DNA from: a virus
Lineage: Duplodnaviria > Heunggongvirae > Uroviricota > Caudoviricetes
Reading direction: 5' to 3' (one strand)
Length of the DNA: 30,317 nt
IMG/VR virus record: IMGVR_UViG_3300042301_002383
Coordinates: 67,322 to 97,638 of that record
The translations under genes were made by a program, and so were the position numbers. The notes under the pieces are model-generated. The model was given only the letters and a program-made list of their open reading frames with translations, did no database searches and was not told the origin of the DNA. Below, piece after piece: positions 4,960-25,708 of the stretch. Numbering within the stretch: the first letter of the stretch is position 1; each line of letters starts with the position of its first letter.

Positions 4960-4976
4960 TAGTTTATGTTTATTAA

Positions 4977-5005
4977 AATATAATGATATTTTTTTAGTTA
5001 ATCAA
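4977..5005 (-). promoter_or_regulatory. sigma70-like promoter TTGATT-N17-TATATT
   Basis: -35 at 5000-5005 and -10 at 4977-4982 with a 17-nt spacer, upstream of the ATG at 4959. Confidence 0.6.
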
Positions 5006-5007
5006 TA

Positions 5008-8000
5008 TTATTCAGGTCGTTTTGGTGTTGCGTCATTAGGGTTAACCTCTTGCAACATAAATTTATAAACCTTATTTTGTTTATTATTATATAAGAATAA
5101 ATCATTCTCACCCTCAACAATTGTATAGTCACCAATACCATTACTTAAAGATAAATCGGAAGTAAAGACTGTGTTCCATCTTAATGATGATGAACCTAAA
5201 TTATATGTACCATTTGCAGATGGGAATATCCCTCCAGTTATGAAAAATCTACCATCGGCAACGAATGTAAATTTAGACTCAGCAACGCTAGCGGTACCAA
5301 AATGAAATCCAATCATATCCTGAGAACCACCATAACCACCCGATCCTTGAAAATAGGAAATACCATAAGCATCCGCATTACCAAAACTCCAAATACGATT
5401 TCGACCTGAAGCATATGTTGCACTTTGGAAACCACTTTGACTGGCAACCACCGTACCGTTAACTGTTATACCTGCGAATGTTGGTGAATTACTTGTACCA
5501 ACACTTTGATTAATTGTATAGGCAGTAATGTTACTAGCAGTACCAGTTGTGTTTTGATTCCATGTTGGTATGTTACCCGCGTGATATATTGTATATTCTG
5601 TTGTACCAACTCCAGCTCTTAGTTTAAGTCCGTTAATATCCGCAGGATTCAACACAAGAATATCATCAGCATCGTTAGACGTACCAATAACTAATCTGTT
5701 TGCTTCACCTGATGAACCACCAATACCGTAAGAATGAAATTGTATAAATCCAAAATCGGAAGGATGATTAATGTTTGTACCATCTTTTTCTGATTCAAAG
5801 AATATACCACTAACACCGGATGAATTACCTTTTAATACAATGTTATCCGCACCTGTTACATAGTTTGATAAACTTACATATGTACCTCTTGATAATGACC
5901 CACCAATAGTTAAACCACCTGTTAATGTAGTATCAACAAACGTTGGTGAGTTACCCGTGCCAACACTTTGGTTGATTGTATATGCGGTAATATTACTAGC
6001 GGTACCTGTTGTGTTCTGATTCCAAGTTGGTATGTTACCAGAGTGATAAACGGTTTGACCTAACCAAGTTATGGTGGAATTATTATATAATTTTAAACCT
6101 TCACTATAAACACCATTACCATCTTTACTCCCAATATCAATATATCTATTTGCTGTTGCACTATCATATCTAACTTTAATAACCGGACCATTTGCTGGTC
6201 CATCTAAAATTGTGTATACAGTTTGGTTAGCATATCCGTTTAATGAAGTTGCGTATCCTGAAATATTTGTTTGGTCTCCTGTATTTGTTCCTGATGATGT
6301 ACCACTATAGTTTGACGCTGATAATGTTCCAGGGAATGTTGTGTTACCACTACCATCTAATAATGTTGCAGTTCTTGTAACTGTTGTAAATACACCCGTA
6401 TATTGACGAACATAAATTGGTTCATTACCATCATCAGCAGTTGCCAATTCCATCCAACCACTATTTCCCGCATCACCACCAACACGAATTCTTGCGTAGT
6501 CATTATCTGCAATTTGTGAGTATAGTAAATTCGCGGCGTTTGTTCCTGTTAATGTTTGTGTAACTTGTGTTGCTGTTGATGCATTACCACTTAACGCTCC
6601 ACTAAATGTTGTTGCTGTTAAAGTACCTGAACTAAATGTTAAACCAGCATTACCTTGAATTGTTCCTGCGGTACCTGTTGCGGTTAAAACGTAGTTAGCG
6701 GTATTATTGTTAATTATCGCAGCACCTGATGTACCCGCTGAACCACTTGATCCCGAAGAACCCGAACTACCTGAAGAACCTGAATTTCCTGAGGTTCCTG
6801 AACTACCTGAAGATCCTGAACTACCTGCAGTTCCCGATGTTCCACTTGTTCCAGCACTACCGCTAGAACCTGATGTACCTCTAGTTCCTGATGATCCACT
6901 AGAACCACTAGAACCTGCTGCTCCTGACGTTCCAGAGCTACCTGAAGTTCCTGTTGTACCGCTAGAACCTGATGTGCCACTAGTTCCTGTTGTTCCAGAT
7001 GTACCACTAGAACCTGCTGTTCCTGATGACCCACTTGAACCGCTAGAACCTGAACTACCACTTGTACCCGCACTTCCACTAGAACCTGAACTACCACCGG
7101 CACCAGAACTACCTGAACTTCCACTTGTACCTGAAGTACCGGCCGCAGCTAACCAAGTTGTTCCGTTATATCTATAAATGTTATTATCGGTTGTGTTATA
7201 GAATAACTGACCAGCAGCGTTACCTATTATATTACCTGTACCACTTGCTGTAGGTATTCTTAAAGATCCCGTAACAAAAACACTACCTGTAAAATTATGA
7301 TTATCTCCAGTGTCGTCACCGAATTTTGTTGACCCTGAAGCGAATGATGTTGTAATAAAACTAACTGATGAGCTGACAATAAATTGTTGAGCAGTTAAAC
7401 TACCCGTTACAACCAAATTACCTTTTACTGTTGTTAAAGATGTATTAAATGTAATATCATTACCAGTATCAACTATATTTGAATTACCAACTGTAGATGC
7501 TGAAGTAAATTTAACTATTGTGCCAGAATTACCCGAAACTGAAACTGATGTACCTGACGTTCCACTAGTCCCTGAAGAACCTGATGTACCGGCACTTCCG
7601 CTAGAACCTGATGTACCTGATGTTCCTCTTGTACCAGAAGAACCTGATGTACCACTAGAACCCGTACCACCACTAGAACCTGATGTTCCACTAGAACCCG
7701 ATGTTCCTGATGAACCACTAGTACCACTAGAACCTGATGTACCAGCAGTTCCACTAGAACCTGAAGTACCAGTTGTACCACTAGAACCTGACGTACCAGT
7801 TGTACCACTAGAACCTGACGTACCTGCACTACCACTACTTCCTGAAGTACCCGCACTACCACTAGAACCTGATGTTCCACTTGTACCAGAAGAACCTGAT
7901 GTACCACTAGAACCCGTACCACCACTAGAACCTGATGAACCTGCGGTTCCTGATGTACCTGCACTACCACTACTTCCTGAAGAACCATTTGCACCACTAG

Positions 8001-11000
8001 AACCTGAAGTACCCGCACTACCACTAGAACCTGATGTTCCTCTTGTACCAGAAGAACCCGATGTACCACTACTACCATTGGCACCACTTGATCCTGAAGA
8101 ACCTGAAGTACCGGCACTTCCGCTAGAACCTGATGTTCCTCTTGTACCACTAGAACCTGATGAACCACTAGAACCTGCAACACCAGAAGAACCTGACGAA
8201 CCACTAGAACCTGATGTTCCACTTGTTCCAGCACTACCGCTAGTTCCTGATGTGCCAGCGGAACCTGATGAACCACTACTACCATTAGCACCACTTGATC
8301 CTGACATACCTGATGTACCTGCACTTCCACTAGAACCTGATGTTCCTGAAGTACCACTAGAACCCGCAACTCCACTACTTCCACTAGAACCTGACGTTCC
8401 ACTAGTTCCTGAAGCACCACTTACACCCGATGAACCACTACTACCACTTGTCCCTGCGGTACCACTTGAACCTGACGTTCCACTAGTTCCTGAAGAACCC
8501 GCAGCCACCAACCAAGTTGTACCGTTATATCTGTAGATATTATTATCTGTTGTATTATAAAATATTTGTCCCGCTATTGTACCTAATGCAGTACCTGTTG
8601 ATGTTGCAGTTGGGACAACCATTGAACCTGTAACCCTTAACGAACCAGTAAATTGGTGTGTATCATCTATTGAATTACCGAATACATGTGAACCAGACGC
8701 AAATGATTGTGTCAAATGCATTACTGAAGATGATATGATAAGTTGTTGAGCGGTTAAGTTACCTGTTACTACTAAACTTCCTGTTACAACTGCATTTTGA
8801 CCAACTCTAAATGTTGTTCCATCATCCGTTAAGTTTGTGGCATTTCCAACAGTTGTTGCTGATGTAAATTTAGTTAATGTATTATTTGTTCCTGAAGTTG
8901 TAATTGAGGTACCTGAAGAACCGCTAGTACCTGATGTTCCACTTGTTCCTGAAGTTCCAGTTGATCCGCTACTTCCGCTAGAACCTGATGTACCTGCACT
9001 ACCGCTAGAGCCTGAACTTCCACTTGTTCCTGAAGTTCCTCTAGTACCACTAGAACCTGAGCTACCACTACTTCCTGAAGAACCCGTAGCACCACTAGAA
9101 CCTGATGTTCCAGCACTTCCACTTGTTCCCGCACTACCGCTAGAACCTGAAGTACCAGTTGTACCAGAAGAACCTGATGTACCACTAGAACCCGTACCAC
9201 CACTAGAACCTGATGTTCCAGCACTTCCACTTGTTCCCGCACTACCGCTAGAACCTGAAGTACCACTAGAACCTGTAGCACCACTAGTACCTGATGTACC
9301 GGCACTTCCACTTGAGCCAGATGTACCTGATGTACCTCTAGTTCCACTAGAACCTGATGTGCCAGCACTACCACTAGAACCTGAGCTACCACTTGTTCCC
9401 GCACTACCACTAGAACCTGAACTACCTGATGTTCCACTAGTACCTGAAGAACCCGTAGCACCACTGGAACCTGATGTACCGGCAGAACCTGAAGTTCCAG
9501 ATGTACCTGACGTACCGCTTGAACCTGAGGTTCCCGATGTACCAGCACTACCGCTAGAACCTGATGTACCAGCAGTTCCTGAAGTTCCACTTGTTCCCGA
9601 AGAACCTGCAGCTCTTAACCAAAATGAACCATCATATCGATAGATATTTGTGTCTGTGGTATTATAATATATTGAACCTGTTGCAGTCCCTACTGGATTT
9701 GAGGATGCTCTAGGTATTTGTAATGACCCTGTTACACTTACAGAACCTGTAAAATTATGGTTATCATCTAACGTATCTCCGAATTTAGTTGAACCTGACG
9801 AGAATGACGTTGTAAGATGTGTAACCGAAGAGCTCACAATAAATTGTTGAGCAGTTAGATTACCCGTAACCACCAATGAACCGGTTACAATTGTATTAGA
9901 CCCTAATCTAACTGTTGTACCGTCATCTGTTATATTTGAATTACCAACCGTAGAGGTTGATGTGAATTTAACGACTGTATTATTGGTGCCTGAAGTTGTG
10001 ATTGATGTACCTGAGCTACCTGATGTTCCCGAACTTCCACTAGTACCTGAAGTACCTGCACTACCGCTAGAACCCGATGTTCCTCTTGTACCACTAGAAC
10101 CTGAACTTCCTGAAGAACCGCTTGTTCCCGAAGAACCTGATGTACCGGCAGTTCCACTTGTTCCTGCACTACCACTACTTCCTGATGTTCCACTAGTACC
10201 TGCAGACCCTGATGACCCTGAAGTTCCGGCACTACCTGATGAACCTGCGGTTCCTGAAGTTCCAGCAGAACCTGAACTACCACTAGTACCTGATGAACCT
10301 GCCAATCCTGAACTACCTGAAGTACCACTAGTACCCGCACTACCGCTAGAACCTGATGTGCCAGCGGAACCTGATGAACCACTAGAACCTGAGGTACCTC
10401 TAGTACCACTTGAACCTGATGTACCAGCACTACCACTAGTGCCTGTTGAACCTGAGCTACCTGATGTGCCAGATGTACCAGCACTACCCGAGCTTCCACT
10501 AGTTCCCGATGAACCTGAACTACCTGACGTACCCGCAGTTCCTGAAGTTCCAGATGTACCTGCCGCCTTTAACCAGAATGAACCATCATATCTATATATG
10601 TTGGTATCGGTTGTGTTATAATATAATTGACCCGCAACTGTTCCCGTAGGGTTTGCAGATGCTGTAGGTATTTTTAAAGAACCTGTTATGTTAACAGAAC
10701 CAGTAAAGTTATGATTGTCATCAATCGTGTCTCCAAATTTTGTCGAACCTGAAGCGAATGATGTTGTTATATAACTAACCGAACTACTAACAATGAATTG
10801 TTGTGCAGTTAAGTTTCCTGTAATCACTAATGACCCCGTTACTACAGAGTTAGAACCTAATCTAATTGTTGTACCATCGTCAGTTATATTTGAATTACCT
10901 ACCGTTGATGTTGAAGTAAATTTAACTACAGTATTATTAGTTCCCGATGTTGTGATTGAGGTACCAGAACTACCTGATGTTCCACTTGTTCCTGATGAAC

Positions 11001-12765
11001 CAGCCGAACCACTAGAACCTGATGTACCTGACGTACCCGCAGAACCCGATGATCCCGCAGTACCACTTGTGCCTGTCGAACCTGAACTGCCTGAAGTACC
11101 ACTAGTTCCCGCAGATCCTGAACTTCCACTTGTTCCTGAAGTTCCCGCACTTCCACTAGAACCAGCAGTTCCTGAACTACCTGATGAACCTGAAGTTCCA
11201 GCCGAACCACTACTTCCACTAGAACCCGATGAACCACTTGTACCTGAAGTACCTGCACTACCGCTAGAACCCGATGTTCCCGCTGAACCTGAACTACCTG
11301 AAGTTCCTGATGATCCAGATGTACCACTAGTTCCTGAAGATCCTGATGTGCCAGCAGAACCTGAAGTTCCCGCACTTCCACTAGAACCGGCAGTTCCTGA
11401 ACTACCTGAAGTGCCACTTGTACCAGTACTACCACTAGAACCAGAGGTTCCACTTGTACCTGCCGAACCACTAGTTCCCGCAGAACCGCTAGAACCTGAC
11501 GTACCTGCACTACCACTACTTCCTGATGAACCACTAGTACCTGATGTACCTGCAGCTTTTAACCAAGTGTTACCGTCATATCTATATATGTTGGTATCAG
11601 TTGTATTATAATATATTGAACCTGTTGCATTTAAAACAGGATTTGTATTTGAAACTGGTACAACCATTGATCCAGTAACTCTTATTGAACCAGTGAATTG
11701 ATGTAAATCATCTAACGTATCACCAAATTTTGTTGAACCTGATGAAAACGATGTTGTAAGATGTGTGACAGAAGATGAAACAATAAATTGTTGAGCGGTT
11801 AAGTTTCCTTGAACTGTTAAATTACCAGAAACTACCCCACTACCCGTTACACTTAAATTAGAACCGTCAAATCTTAAATTAGATTCAACCGTTGCATTTG
11901 TTCCACTACCATTATATGTAATAACACCATCGGTTGTTGAACCTGTTAATGTCACTAAACCAGATGTACCCGATGAACCTGCTGTTCCACTACTTCCTGA
12001 TGAGCCGGCGGTTCCTGAACTACCAGATGTACCGCTAGTTCCTGCACTTCCACTACTACCAGATGTTCCTGCGGTTCCTGAAGTACCTGTGCTACCACTT
12101 GACCCAGATGTTCCGCTAGTACCGGATGTACCCGCACTACCTGAGCTACCTGATGTTCCAGCAGAACCAGAACTTCCTGATGTACCCGAACTTCCACTAG
12201 TTCCAGCAGAACCAGAACTACCTGATGTTCCACTTGTTCCTGAAGTACCCGAAGTTTGTGAATTATAAGATGTACCATTCAATATAAAGTCACCACCTTT
12301 TAATTCAATAGACCCTGTTACATTAACAGAACCTGTGAATATATGTGCATCATCTAATGAATTACCAAATTTAGAAGATTCGGTTACTTTTAATGTTCCT
12401 GTTACTTCTGAATTGGAATTAATTCTAAGACCATTTGCTTGTGAAATAGAAGCGGTTGCACTTCCGTCTGTAATTTGATTTAATTGAAGTCCTGTTACTC
12501 CTGATGCCGGAATATTAAATAATCCGTTACCGTTCCCAATAAAAGATCCTGTGAAAGAACCCGTAGTGTAAGAAGAGGTAAATGCACCGAATGAACTTGT
12601 TAAAGTATACATTGGTGCAAATGAAGCGGTTTCGGCAGAAACTGCGTTAGTTGTGTTACCACTAATATTACCAATAATATTACCTAAGACCGTTAAATCA
12701 CCAGAAATTTCAGCCGAACTTGAGACTGAAAGTGAACCGGATATGTGTGCGTCAAATATATTCAT
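5008..12765 (-). CDS. Giant fibre protein (2585 aa) with six Gly-X-Y Ser/Thr-rich tracts, five repeated modules and a tail-fibre-type C-terminal region
   Basis: Uninterrupted ORF. The C-terminal part has tail-fibre-like motifs ([19 protein letters not shown], and a terminal [18 protein letters not shown]...[13 protein letters not shown]......YKF domain). It is flanked by LamG and glycine-rich genes. Confidence 0.85.
5476..6048 (-). repeat. 37-aa direct duplication within the fibre C-terminal region (copies at 5476-5586 and 5938-6048)
   Basis: YH[A/S][28 protein letters not shown][S/G]NSPTF. Codon-by-codon comparison gives 35/37 identical residues and 14 synonymous codon differences. Confidence 0.9.
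6724..12255 (-). repeat. Six coding Gly-X-Y tracts ([12 protein letters not shown])
   Basis: Approximate tracts: 11959-12255 (99 aa), 10957-11550 (198), 10003-10560 (186), 8905-9606 (234), 7546-8499 (318), 6724-7140 (139). Gly falls at every third residue and there is no Pro. Confidence 0.9.
7141..11958 (-). repeat. Five homologous 132-136-aa modules in the fibre
   Basis: Approximate modules: 11551-11958, 10561-10956, 9607-10002, 8500-8904, 7141-7545. Shared core: LTAQQ(F/L)I(V/I)SSSV...SF.SGS..FG....D.H.FTGS..VTGS...G...YNTTD.NIYRY.G..WL.AAG. Confidence 0.9.
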
Positions 12766-12838: not shown

Positions 12839-13903
12839 ATGTTAAATCATATTAAAAGTGGTACATCACCATATTCAATAAGAAAGGGTGCACAATCTTT
12901 TGGTGTTAGTGGTGAGATTGATTATGGACCAACATCATCGTCAGAATTTTACCAAGGAATAACTCCACCAAATGGTGGATATACAATATACGTTAATAGG
13001 GTAACAGGTGGACCTTCAATACATGTTGCAAATAACGATACTCAATGTATATTTTTTCTTAAATCATTTGGTGCAACTGGTTCAACAATAAGTGAAGTAT
13101 TGGCATGGGCAAATGCACAAACATCATTGTATGTTAAAACATCAGATTTTATCATTTCAGATTTACCATATGGTAAAAACGGATTGATAACTAAAGGATT
13201 ATTAATTGCATTAGATGTTAGTGACAGCAATAGTTTTGTAAGTGGCACCACAGTAAATGATTTACATGGTTTTTCAAATTTATTTTTAAATGGTGGACTT
13301 TCGGTTGTGAGTGGTTCAGTTAATGGTAGTCCATTGACTATTCCATTTATTAATATGGTTGGAAGTGGTAGTAGCAATTATGGTGGTTTTTCATCAAATG
13401 CCACATTTAATAACATTAGAAATTTAACTTGTGAGTTTTTAGTTTTTTTTGGAAGTTTAGGTACTGGTGGTCCTGATACAATATTTAGTAATGAAGGTGC
13501 AAGATTTTATGTTAGAACGGATGGTAATGGAGCGTTAGGTGGTTTTGTTAAGGGTCCAATAACACAATTTGAGAGCAATATAGCGGGAAGCGGGACCGTA
13601 GTAATAAACACGTGGTATCATTTAGTCTTCACCGTTAATTTTGATAATAATTTTTTAGTTTATAAAAATGGAGTTCTTGCCGGAAGTCAATCTATTGCGA
13701 ATGTAGGTGGGAATTGGATAAATCCAACGGCAGCAACGACATCGTCATATCAACCAGCATTGGGATCAAGGTATTCCGGTTACGGGACACCCGGTACCAA
13801 AATGATTGGAGGAATAAACATGTTTCGTTTTTATGATAGGGCATTAAATTCAACAGAAATAACTCAAAATTTTAATATATTAAAATCACGTATAAATCTT
13901 TAA
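12839..13903 (+). CDS. LamG domain protein with distinct N-terminal domain
   Basis: C-terminal GLLIALDVSD.NSF..., TCEFLVFF, WYHLVFTV......VYKNG, MFRFYDRALNSTEITQNFN..K.R. Apart from the epimerase fragment it is the only real plus-strand gene. Confidence 0.8.
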   Translation: MLNHIKSGTSPYSIRKGAQSFGVSGEIDYGPTSSSEFYQGITPPNGGYTIYVNRVTGGPSIHVANNDTQCIFFLKSFGATGSTISEVLAWANAQTSLYVKTSDFIISDLPYGKNGLITKGLLIALDVSDSNSFVSGTTVNDLHGFSNLFLNGGLSVVSGSVNGSPLTIPFINMVGSGSSNYGGFSSNATFNNIRNLTCEFLVFFGSLGTGGPDTIFSNEGARFYVRTDGNGALGGFVKGPITQFESNIAGSGTVVINTWYHLVFTVNFDNNFLVYKNGVLAGSQSIANVGGNWINPTAATTSSYQPALGSRYSGYGTPGTKMIGGINMFRFYDRALNSTEITQNFNILKSRINL

Positions 13904-16645
13904 TTACAATTTAAGTAATTTTTTAATTTCGTTAATTACACTTTCGGAACTAATTTCTTTTGAACATTCGAATTGTCTATCTGTACCTTTTTGGTCGGGA
14001 CACCAATTCCAATCTCCAGCATCAAAATCATGTCGATTCCAACAACTGTTACAAACATTTTTATTAATTACTCTATTAACTCCGATGAATGGTTCCGTAT
14101 ATATGTCTGTGAATCCTGATATTAAAACCACCGGCACATCCGCACCCCACGCCAACCAACTTAATCCACTACTAATTCCAATAAAAAGTTCTGACTCTTG
14201 TAATGTTTTTATAACATCCGTTAATAACCCCGATGGTTGTTGCACCACCCCTATTGGGTTTTTATTACCCATATATCCATCTTCTTCTCTAGATAACAAT
14301 CTTACCTCGTAACCATTTTCTTTTAGATAATCAACCACATCTTGCCAACCATTTGGGTTGTTCCAATATTTTAATTGTGCGGTCGAGTGAATACCGATAC
14401 AAACTCTCTTTTGTTTTTTCTTACCTAATTTTGGTAATTTTGTTCTTACCTCTTCATAATCTAAACCTAAAATATCCGAAGCGATTTTTGTTAATGGTTC
14501 CAATTTAGGGTCTGACGAGTGATGTTCGATATTAATATGTCTTGTTCCATCATTTTCGGTTTTGTAAAACATACCTAAACGATATAAGGAATATAAATTA
14601 TTTACATTGGTTCCAGGTTCAACAAATTCAATCTCTTTATATTGTTTTTTAAATAAGTCATTTTGGAATGTTGAGCATATCATTTTACAACCATGTTTCT
14701 TTCTGAAATTCTCAACATACGGGACAAATGCAATCGTGTCACCCAATGATTTAGATTCGAAAGCAACATAAACTCTTTTACCTTTTAAATCAATCCTATG
14801 TTCATAATAATAATCATTATCAATTCCCTTTATCACAATTGTCCAATCAACATAATACTTTATTGAGCTTCTTGACCAGTGATTACTTTTCAATTCAATG
14901 GAAAATTCGGTCTTCTTTGTTTTGTTATTAATGAACTGAACACTATATAATAATTGTTCATCATCTAATATTTCAATATATGGTCCATCAACAAAATGAA
15001 CATTTACTGACTTTGGTTTATGATTCTGTTTTATTTCTATATTTTTTGTTGTGTACTTATTTATCTCTCTACAATCTTCAGCACTTTCACCTAAGAACTC
15101 TTTATATACTTCGACCCCTTGATAATATACAATAACATTACTACCCTTTTTATATTGACCTAATGGTATTGTAAAAAACGCCTCTTTATGTAATGTGATA
15201 AATCGTTTATAGTCATTGTAAACCACCTCAAGTAGATAATCTTTGTCTGCCTTAATTTCTGAGAATCCAGAAATCAAATGTAAGTGAAGGTTGTGTTTCT
15301 CATCCACACCAATGTATGTTTGGAAATAAGCACCGTTTTTAATCATTCCATCTCTATTCCAAACAGCTTGTGTATTCAACTCATCATTGTTTGCAATGTA
15401 ATTGGTTACAAAGATATTGTTAGTGACATTTCTTAGTGCTGTTAAAAATACTCTTTCTAATTGCCAACCGTTTGGTTTGTTTTTAAAGTATTCTTCTTTG
15501 GTTTTGATTTGGTCAATTGCTTTAATTGCCACATCAGTTTTAACTGAGAAAATAAACGTTGCGCAATATTCACTAAAATTTGAGTTGGTTATACTGTTTT
15601 CGGAATATTCATATAACACAGCATCATGTCCGCCCAATCTTTCTAAAAATGCTTGTCTATATTGAACTGGATTTGGTAAGTTATCATATTCAAAGAAGTG
15701 AATATTTTTCTTACCCAAGTAGTTACAGAAATTAAATGAGTTCCTCAGGGTCTCCCATATAGCATAATCATGATGGAACGCATTTGCATTATCAATTCTA
15801 TGGTCACCCATATCACTCCATCTTCCGCTGGCAACTTGATATTCGTTGAATTCATGACTTAATAAAAGTGGGTTCTTTTTGTCAAATAAATAGTAGTCCA
15901 CCATCTTTTGAATCTCAGGTTTAATTGGATAATGTCCTGTTAATAATATATCAATATTATATGTCTTTAATATTTTAATTAACTCAATTAAATCATTCTC
16001 TTTTGATTCGTTATTTGGCCAACAATCAATTACAAAAATATCGTCCTTATAAGTTTCTTTACTAAGCTCAGGAACAATTTGTTGTGTCAAATATTTCTCA
16101 CCACCTTTGATACCATAAAAGTATAAATCATCTGGTTCATAACCTCTTTCAAAATGACCATCAATAAACGCCTCATTAAATGAAGGTATAATTTCTATAT
16201 CTTCTTTTTCTAAATTTTTATAATAGTCAGCCCATTCTTCACTAACATCTTCTAATAATGGTGCATCACATTGACTTGTTCTTCTTGTACCATGTTCTGG
16301 TCTACCATTAGCTGCACATGTGAATATGAACATACCACCTGGCTTTAACATTCTAATAACATTCTTAATGGTATCAGGATAATACATATCATGCTCAAAA
16401 ACTTCAGTAGATATGATTGTGTCAAAATATTCATCGGGAGCATCGTATAGATTACCCGCAGCAGCGACATCAACATTTCTTCCTTCTCCGATATCTATAC
16501 CAATGTAATTACAATCCTCGAATAGAAATCTATTTGAACCATTTAAATCTAATGACCCAATATCTAATACTTTTTTATTTTTAAAATATTCCGGATGTTT
16601 TTCTCTAACTCTAGAACAAAATTGTTGTTGTTGTAAATGTGCCAT
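13904..16645 (-). CDS. Fusion: class I SAM methyltransferase + unknown middle domain + TibC/AAH-type (GT9-like) protein O-glycosyltransferase
   Basis: N-terminal VLDIGSLDLNG...DTIISTEVFEH...LKPGG. C-terminal region (about 13904-15020) has KRVYVAFESKSLGDTIAF, FIGISSGLSWLAW, VVLISGFT and CNSCW-x12-CP-x8-FEC (C-x2-C-x13-C-x11-C), matching the autotransporter heptosyltransferase pattern. Confidence 0.8.
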   Translation of the reverse strand: MAHLQQQQFCSRVREKHPEYFKNKKVLDIGSLDLNGSNRFLFEDCNYIGIDIGEGRNVDVAAAGNLYDAPDEYFDTIISTEVFEHDMYYPDTIKNVIRMLKPGGMFIFTCAANGRPEHGTRRTSQCDAPLLEDVSEEWADYYKNLEKEDIEIIPSFNEAFIDGHFERGYEPDDLYFYGIKGGEKYLTQQIVPELSKETYKDDIFVIDCWPNNESKENDLIELIKILKTYNIDILLTGHYPIKPEIQKMVDYYLFDKKNPLLLSHEFNEYQVASGRWSDMGDHRIDNANAFHHDYAIWETLRNSFNFCNYLGKKNIHFFEYDNLPNPVQYRQAFLERLGGHDAVLYEYSENSITNSNFSEYCATFIFSVKTDVAIKAIDQIKTKEEYFKNKPNGWQLERVFLTALRNVTNNIFVTNYIANNDELNTQAVWNRDGMIKNGAYFQTYIGVDEKHNLHLHLISGFSEIKADKDYLLEVVYNDYKRFITLHKEAFFTIPLGQYKKGSNVIVYYQGVEVYKEFLGESAEDCREINKYTTKNIEIKQNHKPKSVNVHFVDGPYIEILDDEQLLYSVQFINNKTKKTEFSIELKSNHWSRSSIKYYVDWTIVIKGIDNDYYYEHRIDLKGKRVYVAFESKSLGDTIAFVPYVENFRKKHGCKMICSTFQNDLFKKQYKEIEFVEPGTNVNNLYSLYRLGMFYKTENDGTRHINIEHHSSDPKLEPLTKIASDILGLDYEEVRTKLPKLGKKKQKRVCIGIHSTAQLKYWNNPNGWQDVVDYLKENGYEVRLLSREEDGYMGNKNPIGVVQQPSGLLTDVIKTLQESELFIGISSGLSWLAWGADVPVVLISGFTDIYTEPFIGVNRVINKNVCNSCWNRHDFDAGDWNWCPDQKGTDRQFECSKEISSESVINEIKKLLKL

Positions 16646-17307
16646 TATCTTTTAGTTATTATAATAATTCCGTTAAGGAAATTTATCGATTCTATCTGTG
16701 TACCAATGTAATTGTATCCTTTAGCTTCAAATTGTTCAACTAACTTATCTTCTCTTCTGGCATTTGCATTATGAAAATTCTCCAATGTTTCACCAAAAAA
16801 ATTAACTTCATCTGTTATACCTTTAAAGTATTCCATCATAGTGCCTTCCAAGTATCTTCCGCCACCATAGTATGGTAAATAAGACGTACATACATCTTCT
16901 ACAACATAAACACCACCGGGTTTAATTGAATCCCATAAATGTTCAAATGAATATATTACATGTTCATTCATGTGCGAACCATCGTCTAGTATCATGTCAA
17001 ATGGTCCGTATTGTGTTTTAATTTTTGTTAAAAACTCTGCATCGAATTGAGAACCAATTTCAACTTTCATCCTATCTTCTTCATATTGTTTACAATCTGG
17101 GTTGATGTCAATACCAAGAATGTTTGACCTATAATAGAATTCTTTCCAAGTTCTTAAGGAATCTCCACCCAAGATACCAATTTCCATTATGTTTAAATTA
17201 TCATACCTATTGAATGGTAGATATTTCTCATACTTAACACAATAATTGTGTATTTCGGAAGACTTATCAGTTCCGTACTTTTTAGCTAAATCGTTTAATA
17301 TACTCAT
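16645..17307 (-). CDS. Class I SAM-dependent methyltransferase, sugar O-methyltransferase-like (MycE-like)
   Basis: KYGTDK...HNY...YE, MEIGILGG.S...W..F, GIDI, FDMILDDGSH, W..IKPGGVYVVED. Confidence 0.8.
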   Translation of the reverse strand: MSILNDLAKKYGTDKSSEIHNYCVKYEKYLPFNRYDNLNIMEIGILGGDSLRTWKEFYYRSNILGIDINPDCKQYEEDRMKVEIGSQFDAEFLTKIKTQYGPFDMILDDGSHMNEHVIYSFEHLWDSIKPGGVYVVEDVCTSYLPYYGGGRYLEGTMMEYFKGITDEVNFFGETLENFHNANARREDKLVEQFEAKGYNYIGTQIESINFLNGIIIITKR

Positions 17308-20024
17308 CTTGTAAAATATAACATTTGTAACGCATTATTTATACCCATAAACATAAGATATGAGTTAAATCCTAATTTCAACATTCTATCAATTAATTGT
17401 TGTCTCAATTCATCATCAAAATTAAAATGACTATGATGATATTCCATTGAGATGTTATTAACCTTCATTAAATTATCGTCACTAATTCCTTTTAAGGCGT
17501 GATGTTCAGCGCCTTCGATATCAATTTTAAGAAAATCAATATGGTCAACCAATCCAGTTTCAAACAAGTAATCTAACGTATACGTTCTTACTGGATAGTT
17601 TACTGTATTATTATGTGTACCAAATAAATTGGATCCACCTAAATGGGAACTCTCATATAATCTAAATTCTCCAATAGAATCCGCAGCACCCGCATTAAAT
17701 AAAATAGAACGAGGGTCAGCATTTAAGGATAATAATTTAAAATATCTTTTATCTGGTTCAAAAGATATAACTTTAGATGCACCTTGACTATACGCCCATC
17801 TATTGAATATACCGATGTTACCACCTAAATCAACAACAACATCACCTTCATTAATATTCTTTACTCTATCTTTATAATAATCAAGTAGATTAAAAATCTC
17901 ATGATAGATAGCCCTAAACCAACCAAATTTTTCCGCCACCTCTAATGTACCACCTTCATACTCCTTTATGTCCCCCAAGTTTTCAACATTGTATATTCCT
18001 GTATAAAAATATTCTGAGTTATAAAATGAATTGTCCTTTATAAATTTGATAAACTGAACCATTTTATCTGAGTTCTCGGAATTCTTATTCCCGTGGAAAT
18101 AAAGAATATCTTCTTTGTTCTTTGGTATGTATTGATAACCAAAAACTTTATCGAAGTTATATGGTCCTTTCTTATTCCAAAAAGTGTAGAAGTCTTCTAA
18201 TTGTTTTTGTGTTTGACCAGCATCACCATCATAAGATGATGTATCAAAATTAGATAATGGTAAATGTTTAGTGTAACCATGTTTCCATCTTAATGCGTTT
18301 TCAATACCCTCATCATTCCATATGAACAACCTATCGTAATCTTTTAAATCTGTTGTCTTATATGATTCAATTACTTGTTCAAACCACCCAACACAATTTC
18401 TATTATAAATGAACATACAAACATGCATGTATGGTGTTCTTTTTTGAATACCCCACTCTTTAGCTAACTCTTCATTAAATGATTGGTTCTTTGTTTGACC
18501 ATCTAATGTATAGTAACCATAAAATTCTTCTTGTCTATGAATGTCAGATAATGGATAGTTATCAATATCCTTAAAGTATTTTTCAATCGTATCGAAATTG
18601 TGATTAATCACCACATCACCATCAATCCAAACAAACTTATCATAGTCTTCATTAAACGCCTCAATACACGCATATTGTTTCCAATACCATCTATCATGTT
18701 CAGAATGTTTTGGTGGGTCAATTCTTCTTTTAATTACGTTCGGGTAATCAAATGGAACGTCACAATCAACACCATAAACAATTATTTTAGAATTTGAGAA
18801 TTCTAATACTGATTGTACTAGTTTCTCGATAACAGGCATATAACCGATATTACCCGTTGTTACAAATACAAATGGTTTCATTTTTTCTTCTAATAACATA
18901 GACGCATTTTTTGCAATAGTATCCCAATTAAAATCTTTATGTATTCTTTTTGCGTCTTCACGTGACGTAATCCACATCGCTGTTTTATAATCGTAAGCTT
19001 GACGCATTTTAAATTTTAAATCTTCCCAGTCCGGTTCACAATATTCTCCAGGGAAATCTTTATGTTCGTAATTTGCAGGAACTAACCCTTTAATTGATAC
19101 AGGTACACCTTTACCTTGGGTGAATTGTTGTTGTCCACCCCAATCTGCATATATCGATGGCGTTCCACATGCCATAGCTTCAATCAATGGTAAATTCCAA
19201 CCTTCACTTCTAGCACAAGAAACAAATACATCTGCCGTTTGCAAATACTTAACATATTCTTCTCTTGATGGGAAATTAACTATTTTAATATTCTTTGTGT
19301 TAATACCATAATGTTTGATTCTTTCTTCTGTTGTACTCAAACCATCTGATGAATATGGGTTTTCTACTGATGCAATTAACTCAACATCTGTTTCGTCTTT
19401 AAACTCTTCACCAAATGCTCGTAATATTTCTGTAGTCCCTTTTCTCCACTCCCATCTACCAAACAAAACAAACTGTGTCTTATCTTTTTTAGGATATTTT
19501 TCTAATGGTTTAAATGTTTCAACATCAACACCTTCAGGAACTACATATATCTTTTCTTTTGGATAACCTTGTTCAACTAAACAATCAAACTGCCATTGTG
19601 TTGGGACCCACACTTCATCAAAGTAAAATAATCTATTAAAGAAGTCATCTGGATAACGTGTCGATTCCCAAACATTGTATGCAATATTATAACCACTATA
19701 ATTGTCATAGAAATAGTAATGATTCATATCCATTAACACGATATTAATGTCCGGCGTAAAATCACCCTTATAACCATATATCGGTGAATCTCCGTGACTA
19801 CCGTCACTATTAATCAAGGTCTGTTGGATTAACATATCCTTCATTTCGTCGGTTATGTATGGTTCGTCATTATGTGGGGTATTATTCATACCTTTCCAAC
19901 CTTTCCCGATTGTTGCGTTCCTAACCTTTACAGTATGGTATTTGTTTAGGGCACAAAAAAAGGACCTAGCGTGATTAGCATATCCTGTGGTACCAATGAA
20001 TGGTGCGTGTGCAAGTATTTTCAT
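17304..20024 (-). CDS. Fusion: GT4 glycosyltransferase + putative GT-A-like domain + FkbM-family methyltransferase
   Basis: GT4 E-x7-E motif EGWNLPLIEAMACG; middle domain with WIDGD (DxD); C-terminal VVDLGGNIGIF, ISFEP, TLD, DFLKIDIEGAE. Confidence 0.85.
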   Translation of the reverse strand: MKILAHAPFIGTTGYANHARSFFCALNKYHTVKVRNATIGKGWKGMNNTPHNDEPYITDEMKDMLIQQTLINSDGSHGDSPIYGYKGDFTPDINIVLMDMNHYYFYDNYSGYNIAYNVWESTRYPDDFFNRLFYFDEVWVPTQWQFDCLVEQGYPKEKIYVVPEGVDVETFKPLEKYPKKDKTQFVLFGRWEWRKGTTEILRAFGEEFKDETDVELIASVENPYSSDGLSTTEERIKHYGINTKNIKIVNFPSREEYVKYLQTADVFVSCARSEGWNLPLIEAMACGTPSIYADWGGQQQFTQGKGVPVSIKGLVPANYEHKDFPGEYCEPDWEDLKFKMRQAYDYKTAMWITSREDAKRIHKDFNWDTIAKNASMLLEEKMKPFVFVTTGNIGYMPVIEKLVQSVLEFSNSKIIVYGVDCDVPFDYPNVIKRRIDPPKHSEHDRWYWKQYACIEAFNEDYDKFVWIDGDVVINHNFDTIEKYFKDIDNYPLSDIHRQEEFYGYYTLDGQTKNQSFNEELAKEWGIQKRTPYMHVCMFIYNRNCVGWFEQVIESYKTTDLKDYDRLFIWNDEGIENALRWKHGYTKHLPLSNFDTSSYDGDAGQTQKQLEDFYTFWNKKGPYNFDKVFGYQYIPKNKEDILYFHGNKNSENSDKMVQFIKFIKDNSFYNSEYFYTGIYNVENLGDIKEYEGGTLEVAEKFGWFRAIYHEIFNLLDYYKDRVKNINEGDVVVDLGGNIGIFNRWAYSQGASKVISFEPDKRYFKLLSLNADPRSILFNAGAADSIGEFRLYESSHLGGSNLFGTHNNTVNYPVRTYTLDYLFETGLVDHIDFLKIDIEGAEHHALKGISDDNLMKVNNISMEYHHSHFNFDDELRQQLIDRMLKLGFNSYLMFMGINNALQMLYFTR

Positions 20025-20045: not shown

Positions 20046-20060
20046 AACTTAAAAAGTCAA
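20032..20060 (-). promoter_or_regulatory. sigma70-like promoter TTGACT-N17-TATATT
   Basis: -35 at 20055-20060 and -10 at 20032-20037 with a 17-nt spacer. The ATG at 20024 follows the -10 by only 7 nt. Confidence 0.65.
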
Positions 20061-20863
20061 ATTAAATTTTGTTTAATTTTTGATAAATCATTCAAATAAC
20101 TTGAGAAGTTTTTAGTTATAAAATTGTGTAATTTATATGAATAGGTTTTATTATGGTTTGGTCCTGGATGTATGTCATCAACTCCATAATCCAAAAAAGG
20201 TCTTCCGTAATCACCATCGAATCTGTTAAATTCATTATAATCTTTTGGTATGTGGAAAAAACCATTCCATATCCAATTACATTTTTTAGATTCTAAAAAA
20301 TGCTTTATTAATAAATGATTTTTGTACCAATTTATAAAATCTTCATTATCATTTTGTAAATAAGTTAAATATTCTTGTGTTTTAACACCATCATCTGTTT
20401 CTTTCAAATATCCCCAAGATAATGTGGGCATAAAGGGTTCTATTCCCCCATCTTTAGTATATAATTCTCTTCTAAATGTATTTGTATACATTATTAATAC
20501 CAAATCTGGTTTAATTAAATCATAGTAACTCATTAAACATCTACATATAAAATCGTTACTTCTTCCTCCTGTTCCAAAGTTTAAATTTACCCCATTTTCA
20601 ATATGGTTACAAAATTGTGCCGGCCAAGTTTCATTATCATTGACACCGACTCCTTCCGTAATTGAACAACCTAATGACATAACTTTAAAACCTTCTTTTT
20701 TTATACTATCACCTCTAAATCCTAATTCATTATAGGTGTAGGTACATAGTCCTGTATTATCTCCACCGGAAGTTGTATATGTCTGATTTACTCTTTCTTT
20801 TAATGAATATTTGTAAGATGAGATTTCAAATCCTTTCGGGTTCCAATATTCTAATGGGTTCAT
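20057..20863 (-). CDS. SGNH/GDSL-like hydrolase or acyltransferase
   Basis: NELGFRGD, block I LGCSITEG, block II NFGTGGRSND, block V DDIHPG. Confidence 0.7.
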   Translation of the reverse strand: MNPLEYWNPKGFEISSYKYSLKERVNQTYTTSGGDNTGLCTYTYNELGFRGDSIKKEGFKVMSLGCSITEGVGVNDNETWPAQFCNHIENGVNLNFGTGGRSNDFICRCLMSYYDLIKPDLVLIMYTNTFRRELYTKDGGIEPFMPTLSWGYLKETDDGVKTQEYLTYLQNDNEDFINWYKNHLLIKHFLESKKCNWIWNGFFHIPKDYNEFNRFDGDYGRPFLDYGVDDIHPGPNHNKTYSYKLHNFITKNFSSYLNDLSKIKQNLI

Positions 20864-21360
20864 ATTAATTTATTTGTTTCTGTTTTTATATGTTCATTTT
20901 GTAAAAACCAAAGTAATGAGTATCGTTCACCTTCTAAAATTGGTGCTATTTCATGCTCAATTCCTACATCAAATATATAAGTGTTTCCAATAATTTTATT
21001 TAAAATTATTTCATTTGGATTATACAATGTAAAATCACCACCTTCAAAGTTATCATTTAATAAAACACCAACCGCATATAATCTGTTATCTCTAATATCA
21101 TTGTGTTTTCCAAACCAATCACCTTTCGTAAATTTATGCAAATGTATCGTTTTTTTTATTGTTCTAATTTCAATGTTTGTTTCCCTTTCCACAAAATCCT
21201 TCAACTTATCAAATAACCAATTGGTTTCTAATGAATAATCAATTGGTTGTGAATTATATTTTCTATCCCCCATTCTCCAATTTGTAATATGTTGATTGGA
21301 TTCTAATATAATGGACTCACACTCCTCTTTACTAAATAAGATTTTTTCTTTTAATATCAT
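20860..21360 (-). CDS. 2OG-Fe(II) oxygenase (prolyl hydroxylase-like)
   Basis: KHND...LLNDNFEGGDF...IEHEI.PI..GERYSL. Confidence 0.85.
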   Translation of the reverse strand: MILKEKILFSKEECESIILESNQHITNWRMGDRKYNSQPIDYSLETNWLFDKLKDFVERETNIEIRTIKKTIHLHKFTKGDWFGKHNDIRDNRLYAVGVLLNDNFEGGDFTLYNPNEIILNKIIGNTYIFDVGIEHEIAPILEGERYSLLWFLQNEHIKTETNKLI

Positions 21361-21370
21361 TTTTCTTAAT

Positions 21371-21913
21371 TTATAAAAATTTTCTTTTTGTTTTCCTCCT
21401 ATTTCTTAACCTATTTGTATTATCTAATAGGTGTTCATACTTTGTACTTGTTAAACCAATATAATCTTTTATTCTTTGTATATCCTCTTTGGTGTCGTAT
21501 ATCCCTTCATATGTAACTTTTAACTGAATTTCTTTTATTGTATTAAAATAGTCAATTGTATTATTTACCCATTCCTCAAAATATTTTATGTCTATTTCGT
21601 TTTCTTTTATCCATTCATCACTTACTTCATACCCATTTCTCCATTCCTTTCGTTGTACTGCTTTGGTATGTGATATTGAACACTCTCTCGCATCCTCACG
21701 CGTTAATCCAATTATCTTATCCCAATTTGTTAAATCAATATCCATTCTATTTTCAATTTCACTAATATTATATTTTACCACAATATTGTTTCCTTCAATG
21801 GATTGATTTGTGTATATTGGTTCATGTATCATTTTATGTTCTAGCTCCATAGACAACCATTCATTCAATTGATATCCACCACTTCTTGATAATGCAATAA
21901 TTAAAATTCTCAT
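21371..21913 (-). CDS. Sulfotransferase-like protein
   Basis: N-terminal IIALSRSGG...L......HEP (5'-PSB-like loop), IIGLTRED...S, VTYE.IY. Confidence 0.55.
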   Translation of the reverse strand: MRILIIALSRSGGYQLNEWLSMELEHKMIHEPIYTNQSIEGNNIVVKYNISEIENRMDIDLTNWDKIIGLTREDARECSISHTKAVQRKEWRNGYEVSDEWIKENEIDIKYFEEWVNNTIDYFNTIKEIQLKVTYEGIYDTKEDIQRIKDYIGLTSTKYEHLLDNTNRLRNRRKTKRKFL

Positions 21914-22950
21914 ATTAACGTTTTATTTGTAGTATCAATAAACTCATATAGATTATGAAATAGATTTGTGTTTTTCCACACTTTATTAAACTCTCTTTTA
22001 AATAATTCATGTTCTGGATGATTTGTATTCCAAACTTGTTTTAATTTAAACTCGCCCTCTGAAAATGTGCCCCAATTAGTTATCTTACCGAAAAACACAT
22101 TTACTTTCTTACCAAAAATAGAATACATTAAATTATAAAATGTTTCCATTTCGGTATAATTTGTATCTTGTACCACAAATGAAGTTTTAACACTTATTGG
22201 TAATGTATTAATGAATTTTAAATTGTTTATTAGATTTTCCCAATTACCACCTATTCTTGTTTTATTTTCATAGGTGTCTTTTGTACCTGCATCTATACTA
22301 ATTTCACAACTATGAACATATTTATGTATATTTGGCATACTATCCCACATTTCTTTATTCCACATTGATGCGTTTGTATGAAGATGTATTGATTGCAGTT
22401 TTGGATATTTTTTAGGATTAAAATTTCTTAGATAATTTCTAAACCCAACCGAAACAAACGGGTCTCCTGATCCTGTTATATATAGTGATTTCACATTTGC
22501 AGAATAATGAGTATCAATTTCTTCAATTGTTTTCTCTATCCGTTTAATTCCATTACTGTTTTCAACAATTAAATCTACCCTACAAGATGGACATTTATAA
22601 TTACAAGTTCTATCAAAGTTCATCATTAACATATCAGGAGTGTTATTTTCTATAATAGTATTATTAATATTTGAATTTGATTTTAAAGTAATTGGACCAT
22701 TTGCAACCCCATAATTTACTAATTTACTTAAAAATGGACAAAGTTCTTTATTACAATACTTAAATGAACCATCTAACATACTTTCTCTAATCTCTTGAAC
22801 AGGTTCACTATTCCATATTTCATTTAATTTATATTCATCTCTTTTAAATGAAACATTTAACCAAGATGGACAACACAAAAAATATTGATTATTGTGTATT
22901 TCCAATGAGTTGAATGGTACACCACATATGTAATTTTTTAAATCTACCAT
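21910..22950 (-). CDS. Radical SAM protein with N-terminal SPASM/twitch-like Cys domain
   Basis: CNYKCPSC (CxxxCxxC), ITGSGDP, LHTN, ISIDA. N-terminal CGVPF...LCC...IWNS...IR..M..G....C....CP. Confidence 0.85.
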   Translation of the reverse strand: MVDLKNYICGVPFNSLEIHNNQYFLCCPSWLNVSFKRDEYKLNEIWNSEPVQEIRESMLDGSFKYCNKELCPFLSKLVNYGVANGPITLKSNSNINNTIIENNTPDMLMMNFDRTCNYKCPSCRVDLIVENSNGIKRIEKTIEEIDTHYSANVKSLYITGSGDPFVSVGFRNYLRNFNPKKYPKLQSIHLHTNASMWNKEMWDSMPNIHKYVHSCEISIDAGTKDTYENKTRIGGNWENLINNLKFINTLPISVKTSFVVQDTNYTEMETFYNLMYSIFGKKVNVFFGKITNWGTFSEGEFKLKQVWNTNHPEHELFKREFNKVWKNTNLFHNLYEFIDTTNKTLI

Positions 22951-22959
22951 ATTTTATTA

Positions 22960-23430
22960 TTAATGAAACCAAAAATTTAATGCGTATCGTGTTCCTTCTG
23001 TAACTGGTTTTACTTCGTGATATTGATGACCGCCATCAAATACAACACCATCTCCCTTTTTTAAATTTACAACTTTATTATTTATATATGTATCTCCACC
23101 TATAAACCCATTGGATAACAAAATTATTGATGTTTTATTTTTTGCACCATCTACATGTCTTCGTAACCACCTACCATCCTTATATTCGGTCATTTGTAAC
23201 CACATCGTTTTGTAATTAGGGAAATTATTTTTACTCAACTCATTTATAACTGTATTATAAATTTCTTCATTCCACTTTTCTCTTTCTAGTAGTTGAATAC
23301 CTTGTTGACCCCATATCAACCAAACAAACCAGTTTGTTTTATGGGATTCACTTAAAACACATTCATTCTTAATTTTATCTATTAAATTATCACAAAATTC
23401 GTTGGGTAAAAGATTTTTATATATTTCCAT
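22960..23430 (-). CDS. 2OG-Fe(II) oxygenase
   Basis: EYKDG..LRRHVD...LS.GF.GG.T...KKGDGVVF....YHEVKPV.EGTRYAL. Confidence 0.85.
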   Translation of the reverse strand: MEIYKNLLPNEFCDNLIDKIKNECVLSESHKTNWFVWLIWGQQGIQLLEREKWNEEIYNTVINELSKNNFPNYKTMWLQMTEYKDGRWLRRHVDGAKNKTSIILLSNGFIGGDTYINNKVVNLKKGDGVVFDGGHQYHEVKPVTEGTRYALNFWFH

Positions 23431-23994
23431 TTAAAATAAAGTTTTTTCTTTTTTTACTTTATCCTTTATTTGAAATCCTAATGTTAAAGTTATTCTTGGT
23501 TTTTCTCCTATTACCGGCATACTGCCATGTTCGACCCTACCAGCAACACACCTCCAAACCATTCTTTCTTTTAACTCATTAATCTTACCATTATATATTG
23601 AGTGTCCGCCTTCATGTGGATATGATAGTATTATGTTATATCTAACATGTGTATATCCATCTAAATTTGAATCACTATGTAAATGAATTGAACCCCCTTC
23701 TTTATTAATACCAATTGCGTCTTCAAACATTGGGTCTAATATCCAATCATTAATTTTTTCTACTTCAATTACCCTATCCTTTATTTTTTTTACCAAATCT
23801 AATGGTGAATTTAATATTTTTGTTAATACACCGATTTGTCTAGAACCATATGGCGCATTTATGGTATGACTATTAGTTGTGTTTATTTGAAATAGATGTG
23901 AATTAGAATTTGTCCAAAATAAAAGATTTTCTTGTTCTTCATTTGTTATGAATTCTTCATAACCATATGTGTCATTCAAAATTATTTTTTTCAT
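23431..23994 (-). CDS. 2OG-Fe(II) oxygenase
   Basis: GGSIHLHSD...RYNIILS.P.EGG...EHGSMPV.G..PRITL. Confidence 0.8.
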   Translation of the reverse strand: MKKIILNDTYGYEEFITNEEQENLLFWTNSNSHLFQINTTNSHTINAPYGSRQIGVLTKILNSPLDLVKKIKDRVIEVEKINDWILDPMFEDAIGINKEGGSIHLHSDSNLDGYTHVRYNIILSYPHEGGHSIYNGKINELKERMVWRCVAGRVEHGSMPVIGEKPRITLTLGFQIKDKVKKEKTLF

Positions 23995-25402: not shown

Positions 25403-25404
25403 TT

Positions 25405-25707: not shown

Positions 25708-25708
25708 A

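Follow-up and report, generated by a model that had tools for sequence, protein, structure and literature searches.

What does a phage modify with an enzyme whose bacterial relatives glycosylate repetitive surface proteins? The question is raised by a stretch of 30,317 nt (hereafter the window), which forms the final 30.3 kb of the 97.6-kb IMG/VR viral contig IMGVR_UViG_3300042301_002383 (CheckV completeness 29%) and encodes a 913-aa multidomain protein ending in a domain of the bacterial autotransporter heptosyltransferase (BAHT) family. Its E. coli members TibC and Aah act in the cytoplasm and O-glycosylate Ser residues of a repetitive protein encoded next door (PMC4358343). In the window a gene for a 2,585-aa collagen-like tail fibre lies downstream, beginning 1,138 nt past the stop codon of the enzyme, and the best-supported reading of the locus, to which we give a probability of about 0.65, is that the phage glycosylates its own tail fibre on Gly-Ser/Thr tracts. 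The features discussed are listed in Table 1.

A predicted BAHT enzyme in a phage

Residues 542-910 of the protein matched TIGR04414, the NCBIfam Aah/TibC equivalog, at 281.6 bits (cut-off 200, E 9e-84) over profile positions 7-374 of 374 (368 positions), and a six-frame search of the phage's own genome with this model gave 284.2 bits. The match corresponds to the stretch 13904-15020, which the initial annotation had assigned to a TibC/AAH-type protein O-glycosyltransferase from the sequence alone. That assignment holds: TibC (4RAP/4RB4) was the only match in a sequence search of the PDB (E 2e-51), and Foldseek aligned the AF2 model with 4rap_D over 381 columns (E 3.5e-32, TM 0.84 by target, rmsd 3.2). 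The fold match to WaaC of lipopolysaccharide (LPS) synthesis reached a TM of 0.54, and the LPS equivalog models remained far below their cut-offs (RfaQ 30.5 bits against 467, heptosyltransferase I 22.7 against 185.3, RfaC 19.0 against 437). The grouping with LPS-type GT9 enzymes that the initial annotation had considered was not seen, and an LPS-type GT9 identity was rejected, as both the hidden Markov model (HMM) scores and the fold favour TibC. In Pfam the domain is assigned to Glyco_transf_9 alone (24.9 bits), a distantly related GT-B core that it has in common with WaaC, WaaF and WaaQ; those enzymes have no beta-barrel, thumb or Cys4 finger. The domain is not represented among the families of PHROGs v4, where only the N-terminal methyltransferase of the protein was matched.

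The functional residues described for TibC include Asp-110, Thr-226, Lys-230, Trp-305, Arg-286, the thumb tip and the Cys4 iron finger (PMC4358343). The motifs that the initial annotation had picked out, SLGDT (aa 633-637), FIGISSGLSWLAW (aa 821-833) and C-x2-C-x13-C-x11-C (13964-14053), are all present on the minus strand, the last at exactly the position given. The catalytic Asp is invariant in 120/120 aligned sequences. The four Cys are invariant in 42/42 rows comprising 41 viral clusters and E. coli Aah, and some of them are missing in three divergent bacterial rows (L129, L131, L132) of the 120-row alignment. The phage domain therefore resembles the enzymes of the TibC-TibA and Aah-AIDA-I pairs by HMM, sequence and predicted fold, and shares with them the catalytic Asp, the Thr, Lys and Trp donor contacts, the four-Cys finger, a hydrophobic thumb tip and Phe-368. 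As judged from these residues, the C-terminal 372 residues are an active-looking member of the BAHT (TibC/Aah) family with an intact catalytic apparatus, and the conserved Cys suggest that the phage enzyme may oligomerise through an iron finger.

Table 1. Position and basis of the features discussed, numbered along the window.
Feature	Position (nt)	Strand	Basis
913-aa multidomain enzyme: SAM methyltransferase, GT-A-like domain, beta-sandwich, BAHT (TibC/Aah-type) domain	13904-16645	-	ORF and translation; Pfam, NCBIfam and PHROG matches; AF2 model
N-terminal SAM-dependent methyltransferase domain, aa 1-180	16106-16645	-	Pfam Methyltransf_23, E 3e-8; phrog_32762, E 5e-49
GT-A / nucleotide-diphospho-sugar-transferase-fold domain, about aa 200-435	15341-16048	-	predicted fold; no Pfam match
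BAHT domain, aa 542-913: N-terminal beta-barrel and GT-B catalytic domain with thumb and Cys4 finger	13907-15022	-	TIGR04414; TibC 4RAP/4RB4; Foldseek 4rap_D
Asp-636 (SLGDT), equivalent to TibC catalytic base Asp-110	14738-14740	-	aligns with the D110A site of 4RB4
T755 and K759, equivalent to TibC Thr-226 and Lys-230 (beta-phosphate contacts)			alignment to TibC
Y791 and M792, equivalent to TibC thumb tip Phe-265 and Val-266; hydrophobic pair retained			alignment to TibC
V811, equivalent to TibC Arg-286 (adenine N1 contact)	14213-14215	-	gap-free alignment
S825, equivalent to TibC Pro-300 (heptose stereoselectivity); Ser as in Aah			alignment to TibC
W830, equivalent to TibC Trp-305 (heptose O4 contact)			alignment to TibC
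C865-x2-C868-x13-C882-x11-C894, equivalent to TibC iron-finger Cys-339/342/358/370 (putative here)	13964-14053	-	alignment
F892, equivalent to TibC Phe-368 (thumb-tip hydrophobic cluster between adjacent dimers)			alignment to TibC
220-aa methyltransferase (Methyltransf_24); stop/start codons overlap with both neighbours	16645-17307	-	Pfam, PHROG
906-aa GT4 glycosyltransferase fused to FkbM methyltransferase	17304-20024	-	Pfam, NCBIfam, PHROG
354-aa Laminin_G_3 (ConA-like) protein between enzyme and fibre genes	12839-13903	+	Pfam, E 4.5e-12; phrog_8510, virion structural protein
2,585-aa collagen-like tail fibre	5008-12765	-	Gly-X-Y tracts; Pfam Collagen; PHROG tail-fibre families
Gly-X-Y tracts of the fibre	11953-12249, 10957-11550, 10003-10560, 8905-9606, 7546-8499, 6718-7140	-	

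Gly-X-Y tracts beside the enzyme in viruses

The fibre contains six uninterrupted Gly-X-Y tracts of 33, 66, 62, 78, 106 and 47 triplets, altogether 392 perfect triplets with Gly at every third residue. The 1,176 residues counted, and the distance from the enzyme, agree with the figures of about 1,170 Ser/Thr-rich residues and about 1.1 kb in the initial annotation. Ser or Thr occupies position X, and Ser or Ala most of the Y positions; Pro, Lys, Asp and Glu do not occur, so the usual stabilisers of a triple helix are absent. Pfam Collagen (PF01391) matched 22 stretches of the fibre (E 4e-149), and PHROG tail-fibre families matched it strongly. TIGR04415, the target repeat of BAHT enzymes, gave no match on the fibre at E <= 0.01, and the same search found 18 stretches in the control AIDA-I (E 4e-122). 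No autotransporter barrel was found in the window. The arrangement is like that of TibC and Aah in that a soluble enzyme is encoded beside a long, repetitive, Ser-rich surface protein; unlike theirs, the phage partner is a Gly-X-Y collagen-like tract, with neither a strand-loop-strand beta-helix nor an autotransporter.

A scan of IMG/VR returned 198 contigs with relatives of the enzyme, from which 80 loci were kept and combined with the window and Microcystis phage Mel-JY01 into 41 clusters at 90% identity. A neighbour was counted where an open reading frame (ORF) carrying 45 or more residues in Ser/Thr-rich Gly-X-Y tracts lay within 10 kb, and 29/41 clusters had one. In 17/41 it is directly downstream on the same strand, starting 43-71 nt after the enzyme gene. 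In nine clusters the ORF immediately downstream of BAHT shares 52-81% identity with the non-repetitive N-terminal domain of the window's fibre, and on that account we take the fibre to be the orthologue of this ORF, grown to 2,585 aa. A 100%-complete relative of 335 kb (G001, 335,630 bp) has just five Gly-X-Y ORFs, one of which begins 56 nt after a BAHT gene. The pair also occurs in cultured organisms, namely Mel-JY01 and Methylobacter luteus.

The same complete relative carries two BAHT-like genes, one encoding a standalone protein of 378 aa and the other a protein of 716 aa, after which comes a 679-aa Gly-X-Y protein ending in Peptidase_S74. Its four large Gly-X-Y Ser/Thr fibre genes are clustered about 50 kb from the enzyme; the fibre cluster and the BAHT-like loci lie at 226475-245421, 286331-287464 and 291955-296194. 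Homologous fibres of relatives likewise end in the Peptidase_S74 intramolecular chaperone, in place of which the C-terminal 570 aa of the window's fibre (aa 2017-2585; 5008-6717, minus strand) comprise an internal two-copy duplication and a distal domain with no Pfam match.

Bacterial homologues and phylogeny

Bacterial genomes were scanned with one genome per species and with DNA patterns derived from the phage alignment, which is a caveat. Homologues of 43-47% identity came from Polaromonas, Methylobacter and other Methylococcales. At 14-150 nt from them are small partner ORFs of lipoprotein or signal-peptide type, in which a signal peptide or lipobox precedes (GTS/GTA/GSS)n; some contain nothing more, and others add a small globular domain that contains Cys. 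The beta- and gammaproteobacterial examples adjoining BAHT homologues (L105 9130-9435 on the minus strand, L107, L113, L114, L126, L125 and L111) look like an undescribed class of envelope proteins that are probably glycosylated. The tract is the sole element that the phage fibres and the bacterial partners have in common, and is therefore the most economical acceptor. The other neighbours of the bacterial homologues are housekeeping genes (a DEAD/RecG-like helicase, Mfd, a phosphoribosyltransferase, CsiV and FAD/Fe-S proteins) and gave no clue to the sugar. Homologues of 33-38% identity, from Pandoraea, Selenomonadales and E. coli (Aah), have large autotransporter-like genes as neighbours, and in no case Gly-X-Y ORFs.

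A maximum-likelihood tree of 120 sequences separated the classical BAHT enzymes from a viral/Methylococcales/Polaromonas clade with an SH-aLRT of 100. The classical clade (Aah, Pandoraea, Selenomonadales; 51 sequences) has Arg at the position of TibC Arg-286 in 50 members and Cys in one, and none has a Gly-X-Y neighbour. In the second clade all 65 members have an aliphatic residue there (Val, Ile, Leu, Met or Ala), and 44 have a Gly-X-Y neighbour. The thumb tip of this clade is Tyr/His-Met, or Phe-Met in two viral clusters. Compared with TibC and Aah, the phage domain thus has an aliphatic residue 286, ends a methyltransferase/GT-A fusion and belongs to a separate deep clade.

Among bacterial genome bins the closest match was on a 254-kb contig of a Bacteroidetes metagenome-assembled genome (MAG; L104, CAIWBA010000291.1). 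Both this contig and a 63-kb contig of a 'Bacteroides' MAG (L123) carry phage-type multidomain BAHT fusions and fibre-like Gly-X-Y genes, and are probably phage contigs mis-binned with bacterial genomes. Their binning is a weak hint of a Bacteroidota host.

Proposed glycosylation of the tail fibre

In the mechanism that we propose, the BAHT domain would act in the cytoplasm of the infected cell and move a first sugar from a nucleotide sugar onto Ser/Thr hydroxyls of the fibre tracts; other Gly-X-Y fibres of the same genome might be modified too. The fused GT-A-like domain and the neighbouring GT4 enzyme would lengthen the glycan, three methyltransferase domains would methylate it, and the outcome would be a densely glycosylated fibre shaft. 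The glycan of BclA, from the exosporium of Bacillus anthracis, includes methylated sugars.

The partners needed for such a scheme are at hand. The fused N-terminal methyltransferase and the neighbouring methyltransferase and GT4-FkbM genes noted in the initial annotation are confirmed by Pfam. Among viral clusters, homologues of the 220-aa methyltransferase stand beside BAHT in 25/40 and of GT4-FkbM in 34/40, and GT4, FkbM and methyltransferase domains are fused to BAHT in varying order in different phages, including Mel-JY01. On the strength of this co-occurrence and these variable fusions, the three glycosyltransferase domains and three methyltransferases can be regarded as one evolutionary unit, whose predicted activities fit the synthesis of a short methylated glycan.

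The middle part of the enzyme was resolved through modelling. Pfam gave no match to aa 113-545, and a protein-atlas feature search returned viral hypothetical clusters only. The AF2 model of the whole protein has a mean pLDDT of 83.7, and a GT-A fold (pLDDT 86.7), followed by a beta-sandwich, was recognised only through structure prediction. Its VIA Z was 14.5 to mannosylglycerate synthase (2bo4_A) and of similar size to the IspD and GlmU nucleotidyltransferases. As the first strand lacks the Gly-rich nucleotidyltransferase loop, we favour a glycosyltransferase over a nucleotidyltransferase for this modelled domain.

Sugars on collagen-like tracts have precedents. BclA carries O-glycans in its collagen-like region, and glycosylated Thr stabilises the triple helix in model peptides and in the cuticle collagen of Riftia (PMC11923368 and its references 27, 28, 103); galactosylated Thr converts (Gly-Pro-Thr)10 from a random coil to a triple helix. 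The Gly-X-Thr collagen-like regions of BclA and Riftia are heavily O-glycosylated, as is predicted for the phage fibre, although their tracts contain Pro and those of the phage none; the enzymes are unrelated and no homology is claimed. Since the phage tracts are without Pro, Lys, Asp and Glu, glycosylation may be their stabiliser. By analogy, and speculatively, the sugar could stabilise or stiffen the tracts and so compensate for the missing Pro/Hyp and salt bridges. If so, a glycan would be a third route to collagen stabilisation, beside hydroxyproline and salt bridges, and would explain how Pro-free, charge-free Gly-Ser/Thr 'collagens' function.

Several points weigh against glycosylation of the fibre. 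The target is assigned wholly from gene neighbourhood. TibC recognises a folded beta-helix, whereas the proposed acceptor here is a Gly-X-Y chain, and Arg-286, required in TibC (PMC4358343), is Val in the phage enzyme. The BAHT domain ends a 913-aa fusion protein, whereas TibC is a free 12-mer, and the fusion may not form a ring. The association of enzyme and tract maps to essentially one deep branch, and is therefore statistically close to a single retained evolutionary event rather than many independent gains. In the window itself the pair is not contiguous; the convergent plus-strand gene at 12839-13903 separates enzyme and fibre, which are therefore not on one transcript. Lastly, 12/41 viral clusters have no Gly-X-Y ORF within 10 kb.

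The last two points may be qualified. A homologue of the intervening Laminin_G_3 gene, which the initial annotation did not mention, was present in only 3/40 viral clusters and is absent from this position in most relatives, and the gene is probably a local insertion into an ancestral enzyme-fibre pair. Of the 12 clusters, two do have collagen ORFs outside the 10-kb flank, on the contigs of L053 and L034. The remaining ten lie on contigs of 4-16% completeness, except that of L056, for which there is no estimate. As these contigs are fragmentary, and two have collagen ORFs farther out, we do not count such clusters as phages lacking such fibres. The enzyme's being common in phages without Ser-rich fibres, an outcome raised by the initial annotation, found no support among contigs that are largely fragments. 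The annotation's proposal that the fibre is sugar-coated is thus supported as far as the recurrent adjacency of enzyme and tract in phages and Proteobacteria goes; the modification itself is what we infer from it. The purposes that it suggested (a shield for the virion, a stiffer fibre or a role in host range) are conjectural.

The donor sugar

The initial annotation had named heptose, or another sugar, as the increment to look for. One rival account is that the domain is a classical ADP-heptose-dependent heptosyltransferase exactly like TibC and Aah, using host ADP-heptose, adding 192 Da per Ser and forming a dodecameric ring, with the substrate alone differing. It passes the Aah/TibC equivalog model, retains the residues equivalent to Asp-110, Thr-226, Lys-230 and Trp-305, which serve heptose and beta-phosphate binding, and has Ser at position 300 as in Aah, which takes both heptose epimers. 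Position 286 speaks differently. It lies 19 residues upstream of an invariant Trp, is aligned without gaps back from the invariant SGLSWLAW motif, and is Val in the phage and an aliphatic residue throughout the clade. In TibC Arg-286 is highly conserved and needed for activity, and R286A abolishes or greatly lowers it (PMC4358343). As this Arg is replaced across the branch, nucleotide recognition must differ from that of TibC at this contact.

The ADP-heptose pathway was also searched for. The gmhA model (TIGR00441) found nothing in the 97.6-kb contig or in two relatives that are 97-100% complete. For rfaE domain II the only candidate was a small, generic cytidylyltransferase-like ORF, far below the cut-off and with two stop codons in the phage's own genome. 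A phage-encoded ADP-heptose pathway was therefore rejected, from which nothing firm about the donor follows. Genes resembling gmhA occur in the Bacteroidetes bin and in Proteobacteria that carry the clade, in favour of heptose, although at 188-201 bits they fall just under the model cut-off. The dodecamer, moreover, is conjectural for a domain within a 913-aa fusion. Taken together, the aliphatic residue in 65/65 clade members and the lack of gmhA in the two near-complete relatives make heptose only one possibility, with roughly one chance in three; it does not stand as the initial annotation stated it, and an enzyme identical to TibC and Aah in all but substrate is rather unlikely.

A broader proposal, which we put forward tentatively and hold to be doubtful in its full extent, is that a second TibC/Aah branch, marked by the aliphatic residue 286 and a Tyr-Met thumb, is dedicated to Pro-free Gly-[Ser/Thr]-[Ser/Ala] tracts in the tail fibres of aquatic jumbo phages and in lipoproteins of Methylococcales and Polaromonas. 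In its strongest form the donor would be other than ADP-heptose, and the dense O-glycan would fold uncharged tracts into rigid triple helices.

Other possible targets

The enzyme could be a real protein O-glycosyltransferase with another substrate, such as the capsid, a decoration protein, the Laminin_G_3 proteins, globular modules of the fibre or a host surface protein, its position beside the fibre reflecting no more than the placement of late structural genes. A Laminin_G_3 gene does split the pair, the fibre is succeeded by three further structural genes of ConA-like or Gly-rich type, the 12 clusters noted above have no visible Gly-X-Y neighbour, and the four further Gly-X-Y fibres of the complete relative are 50 kb from its enzyme. 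In addition, capsid and tail-tube proteins are reportedly glycosylated by mycobacteriophages (Freeman et al. 2023, Cell Host Microbe, cited in PMC12619734). Placement among structural genes does not explain the bacterial two-gene units, however, which are free of phage structural genes and in which some partners are little beyond a signal peptide and a tract. Nor does it explain why the tract is the only element common to the neighbours across phages and bacteria, or why in 17 clusters a Gly-X-Y gene on the same strand begins no more than about 70 nt after the enzyme. We consider a different substrate unlikely. A modifier of host glycans (LPS core or envelope polysaccharide) akin to LPS-type GT9 enzymes, serving superinfection exclusion or serotype conversion, is highly improbable: apart from the sole Pfam placement in Glyco_transf_9, the LPS models scored 19-30 bits against cut-offs of 185-467, the fold is closer to TibC than to WaaC (TM 0.84 vs 0.54), and the domain has the beta-barrel, thumb and Cys4 finger that are specific to TibC.

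Glycosylation of the fibre tracts thus remains the preferred reading. To our knowledge, virion protein glycosylation is known experimentally for few phage systems, chiefly mycobacteriophages, whose virion proteins are reportedly O-glycosylated at the C-termini of capsid and tail-tube subunits. The likeness lies in phage-encoded glycosyltransferases acting on the phage's own virion proteins, as predicted here; the targets, being subunit C-termini there, as well as the enzyme families, hosts and phage lineages, differ.

In our literature searches no publication connected BAHT enzymes with phages or with collagen-like acceptors, and nothing relevant on Mel-JY01 turned up; a 2025 survey of large Bacteroidota phages mentions glycosyltransferases generically only (PMC12619734). 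The JGI pipeline labels many such proteins 'autotransporter strand-loop-strand O-heptosyltransferase'. With this label already in use the family match itself is not new, and the label names the wrong substrate for phages. Members of a well-understood family of bacterial virulence enzymes occur here in aquatic phage contigs by the hundred, with a proposed acceptor that is different and easy to recognise. If the fibre is indeed the substrate, this would reveal the target of the 'sugar islands' that are widespread in large phages of fresh and marine waters, the BAHT family would reach beyond autotransporters, and the enzyme with a GTS repeat would provide a simple enzyme-tag pair for glyco-engineering.

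Gene layout and other observations

Nearly all genes of the window are on the minus strand. Megablast, run with 10 kb of the window on a set of 50,697 phage records, gave no match, which places the phage in a lineage without a close cultured relative; the largest relatives of the source contig are 324-336 kb. The stop codon of the plus-strand Laminin_G_3 ORF abuts that of the enzyme gene on the opposite strand (13903/13904). Further Laminin_G_3 proteins are encoded downstream of the fibre at 3434-4252 and 4264-4959, and a Gly_rich_2 protein at 1776-3419. The T4 late-promoter word TATAAATA was no more frequent than expected by chance, and none precedes the fibre gene.

Long 'shadow' ORFs (136-338 aa) run across the Gly-X-Y coding repeats in other frames and on both strands (6707-11611). 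They are artefacts that result from the composition of the repeats and might lead gene-calling programs astray; Mel-JY01 (L085, PP395634.1) may be such a case. There an open frame of 1,016 codons, full of GTS/GSS/GTR triplets, extends over 2-3049 on the plus strand and is cut off by the beginning of the record. In its place the deposited annotation has minus-strand coding sequences (1-651, 739-2298), and is probably wrong in this region. The 1,226-aa GT4-...-BAHT protein (4750-8430, plus strand) is annotated only as 'methyltransferase FkbM'.

In one viral cluster (L034) the large neighbouring 1,431-aa ORF (2-4294, plus strand) has Ser/Thr/Pro repeats of the form SLSI-T-P-S-(V/I)-TPS in place of Gly-X-Y, which may represent a different style of acceptor. 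Directly upstream of the glycosylation genes of the window, a tight run on the minus strand (20057-28451) encodes four 2OG-Fe(II) oxygenase-like proteins together with radical SAM, sulfotransferase-like and ferrochelatase-like proteins, and could be a further tailoring system.

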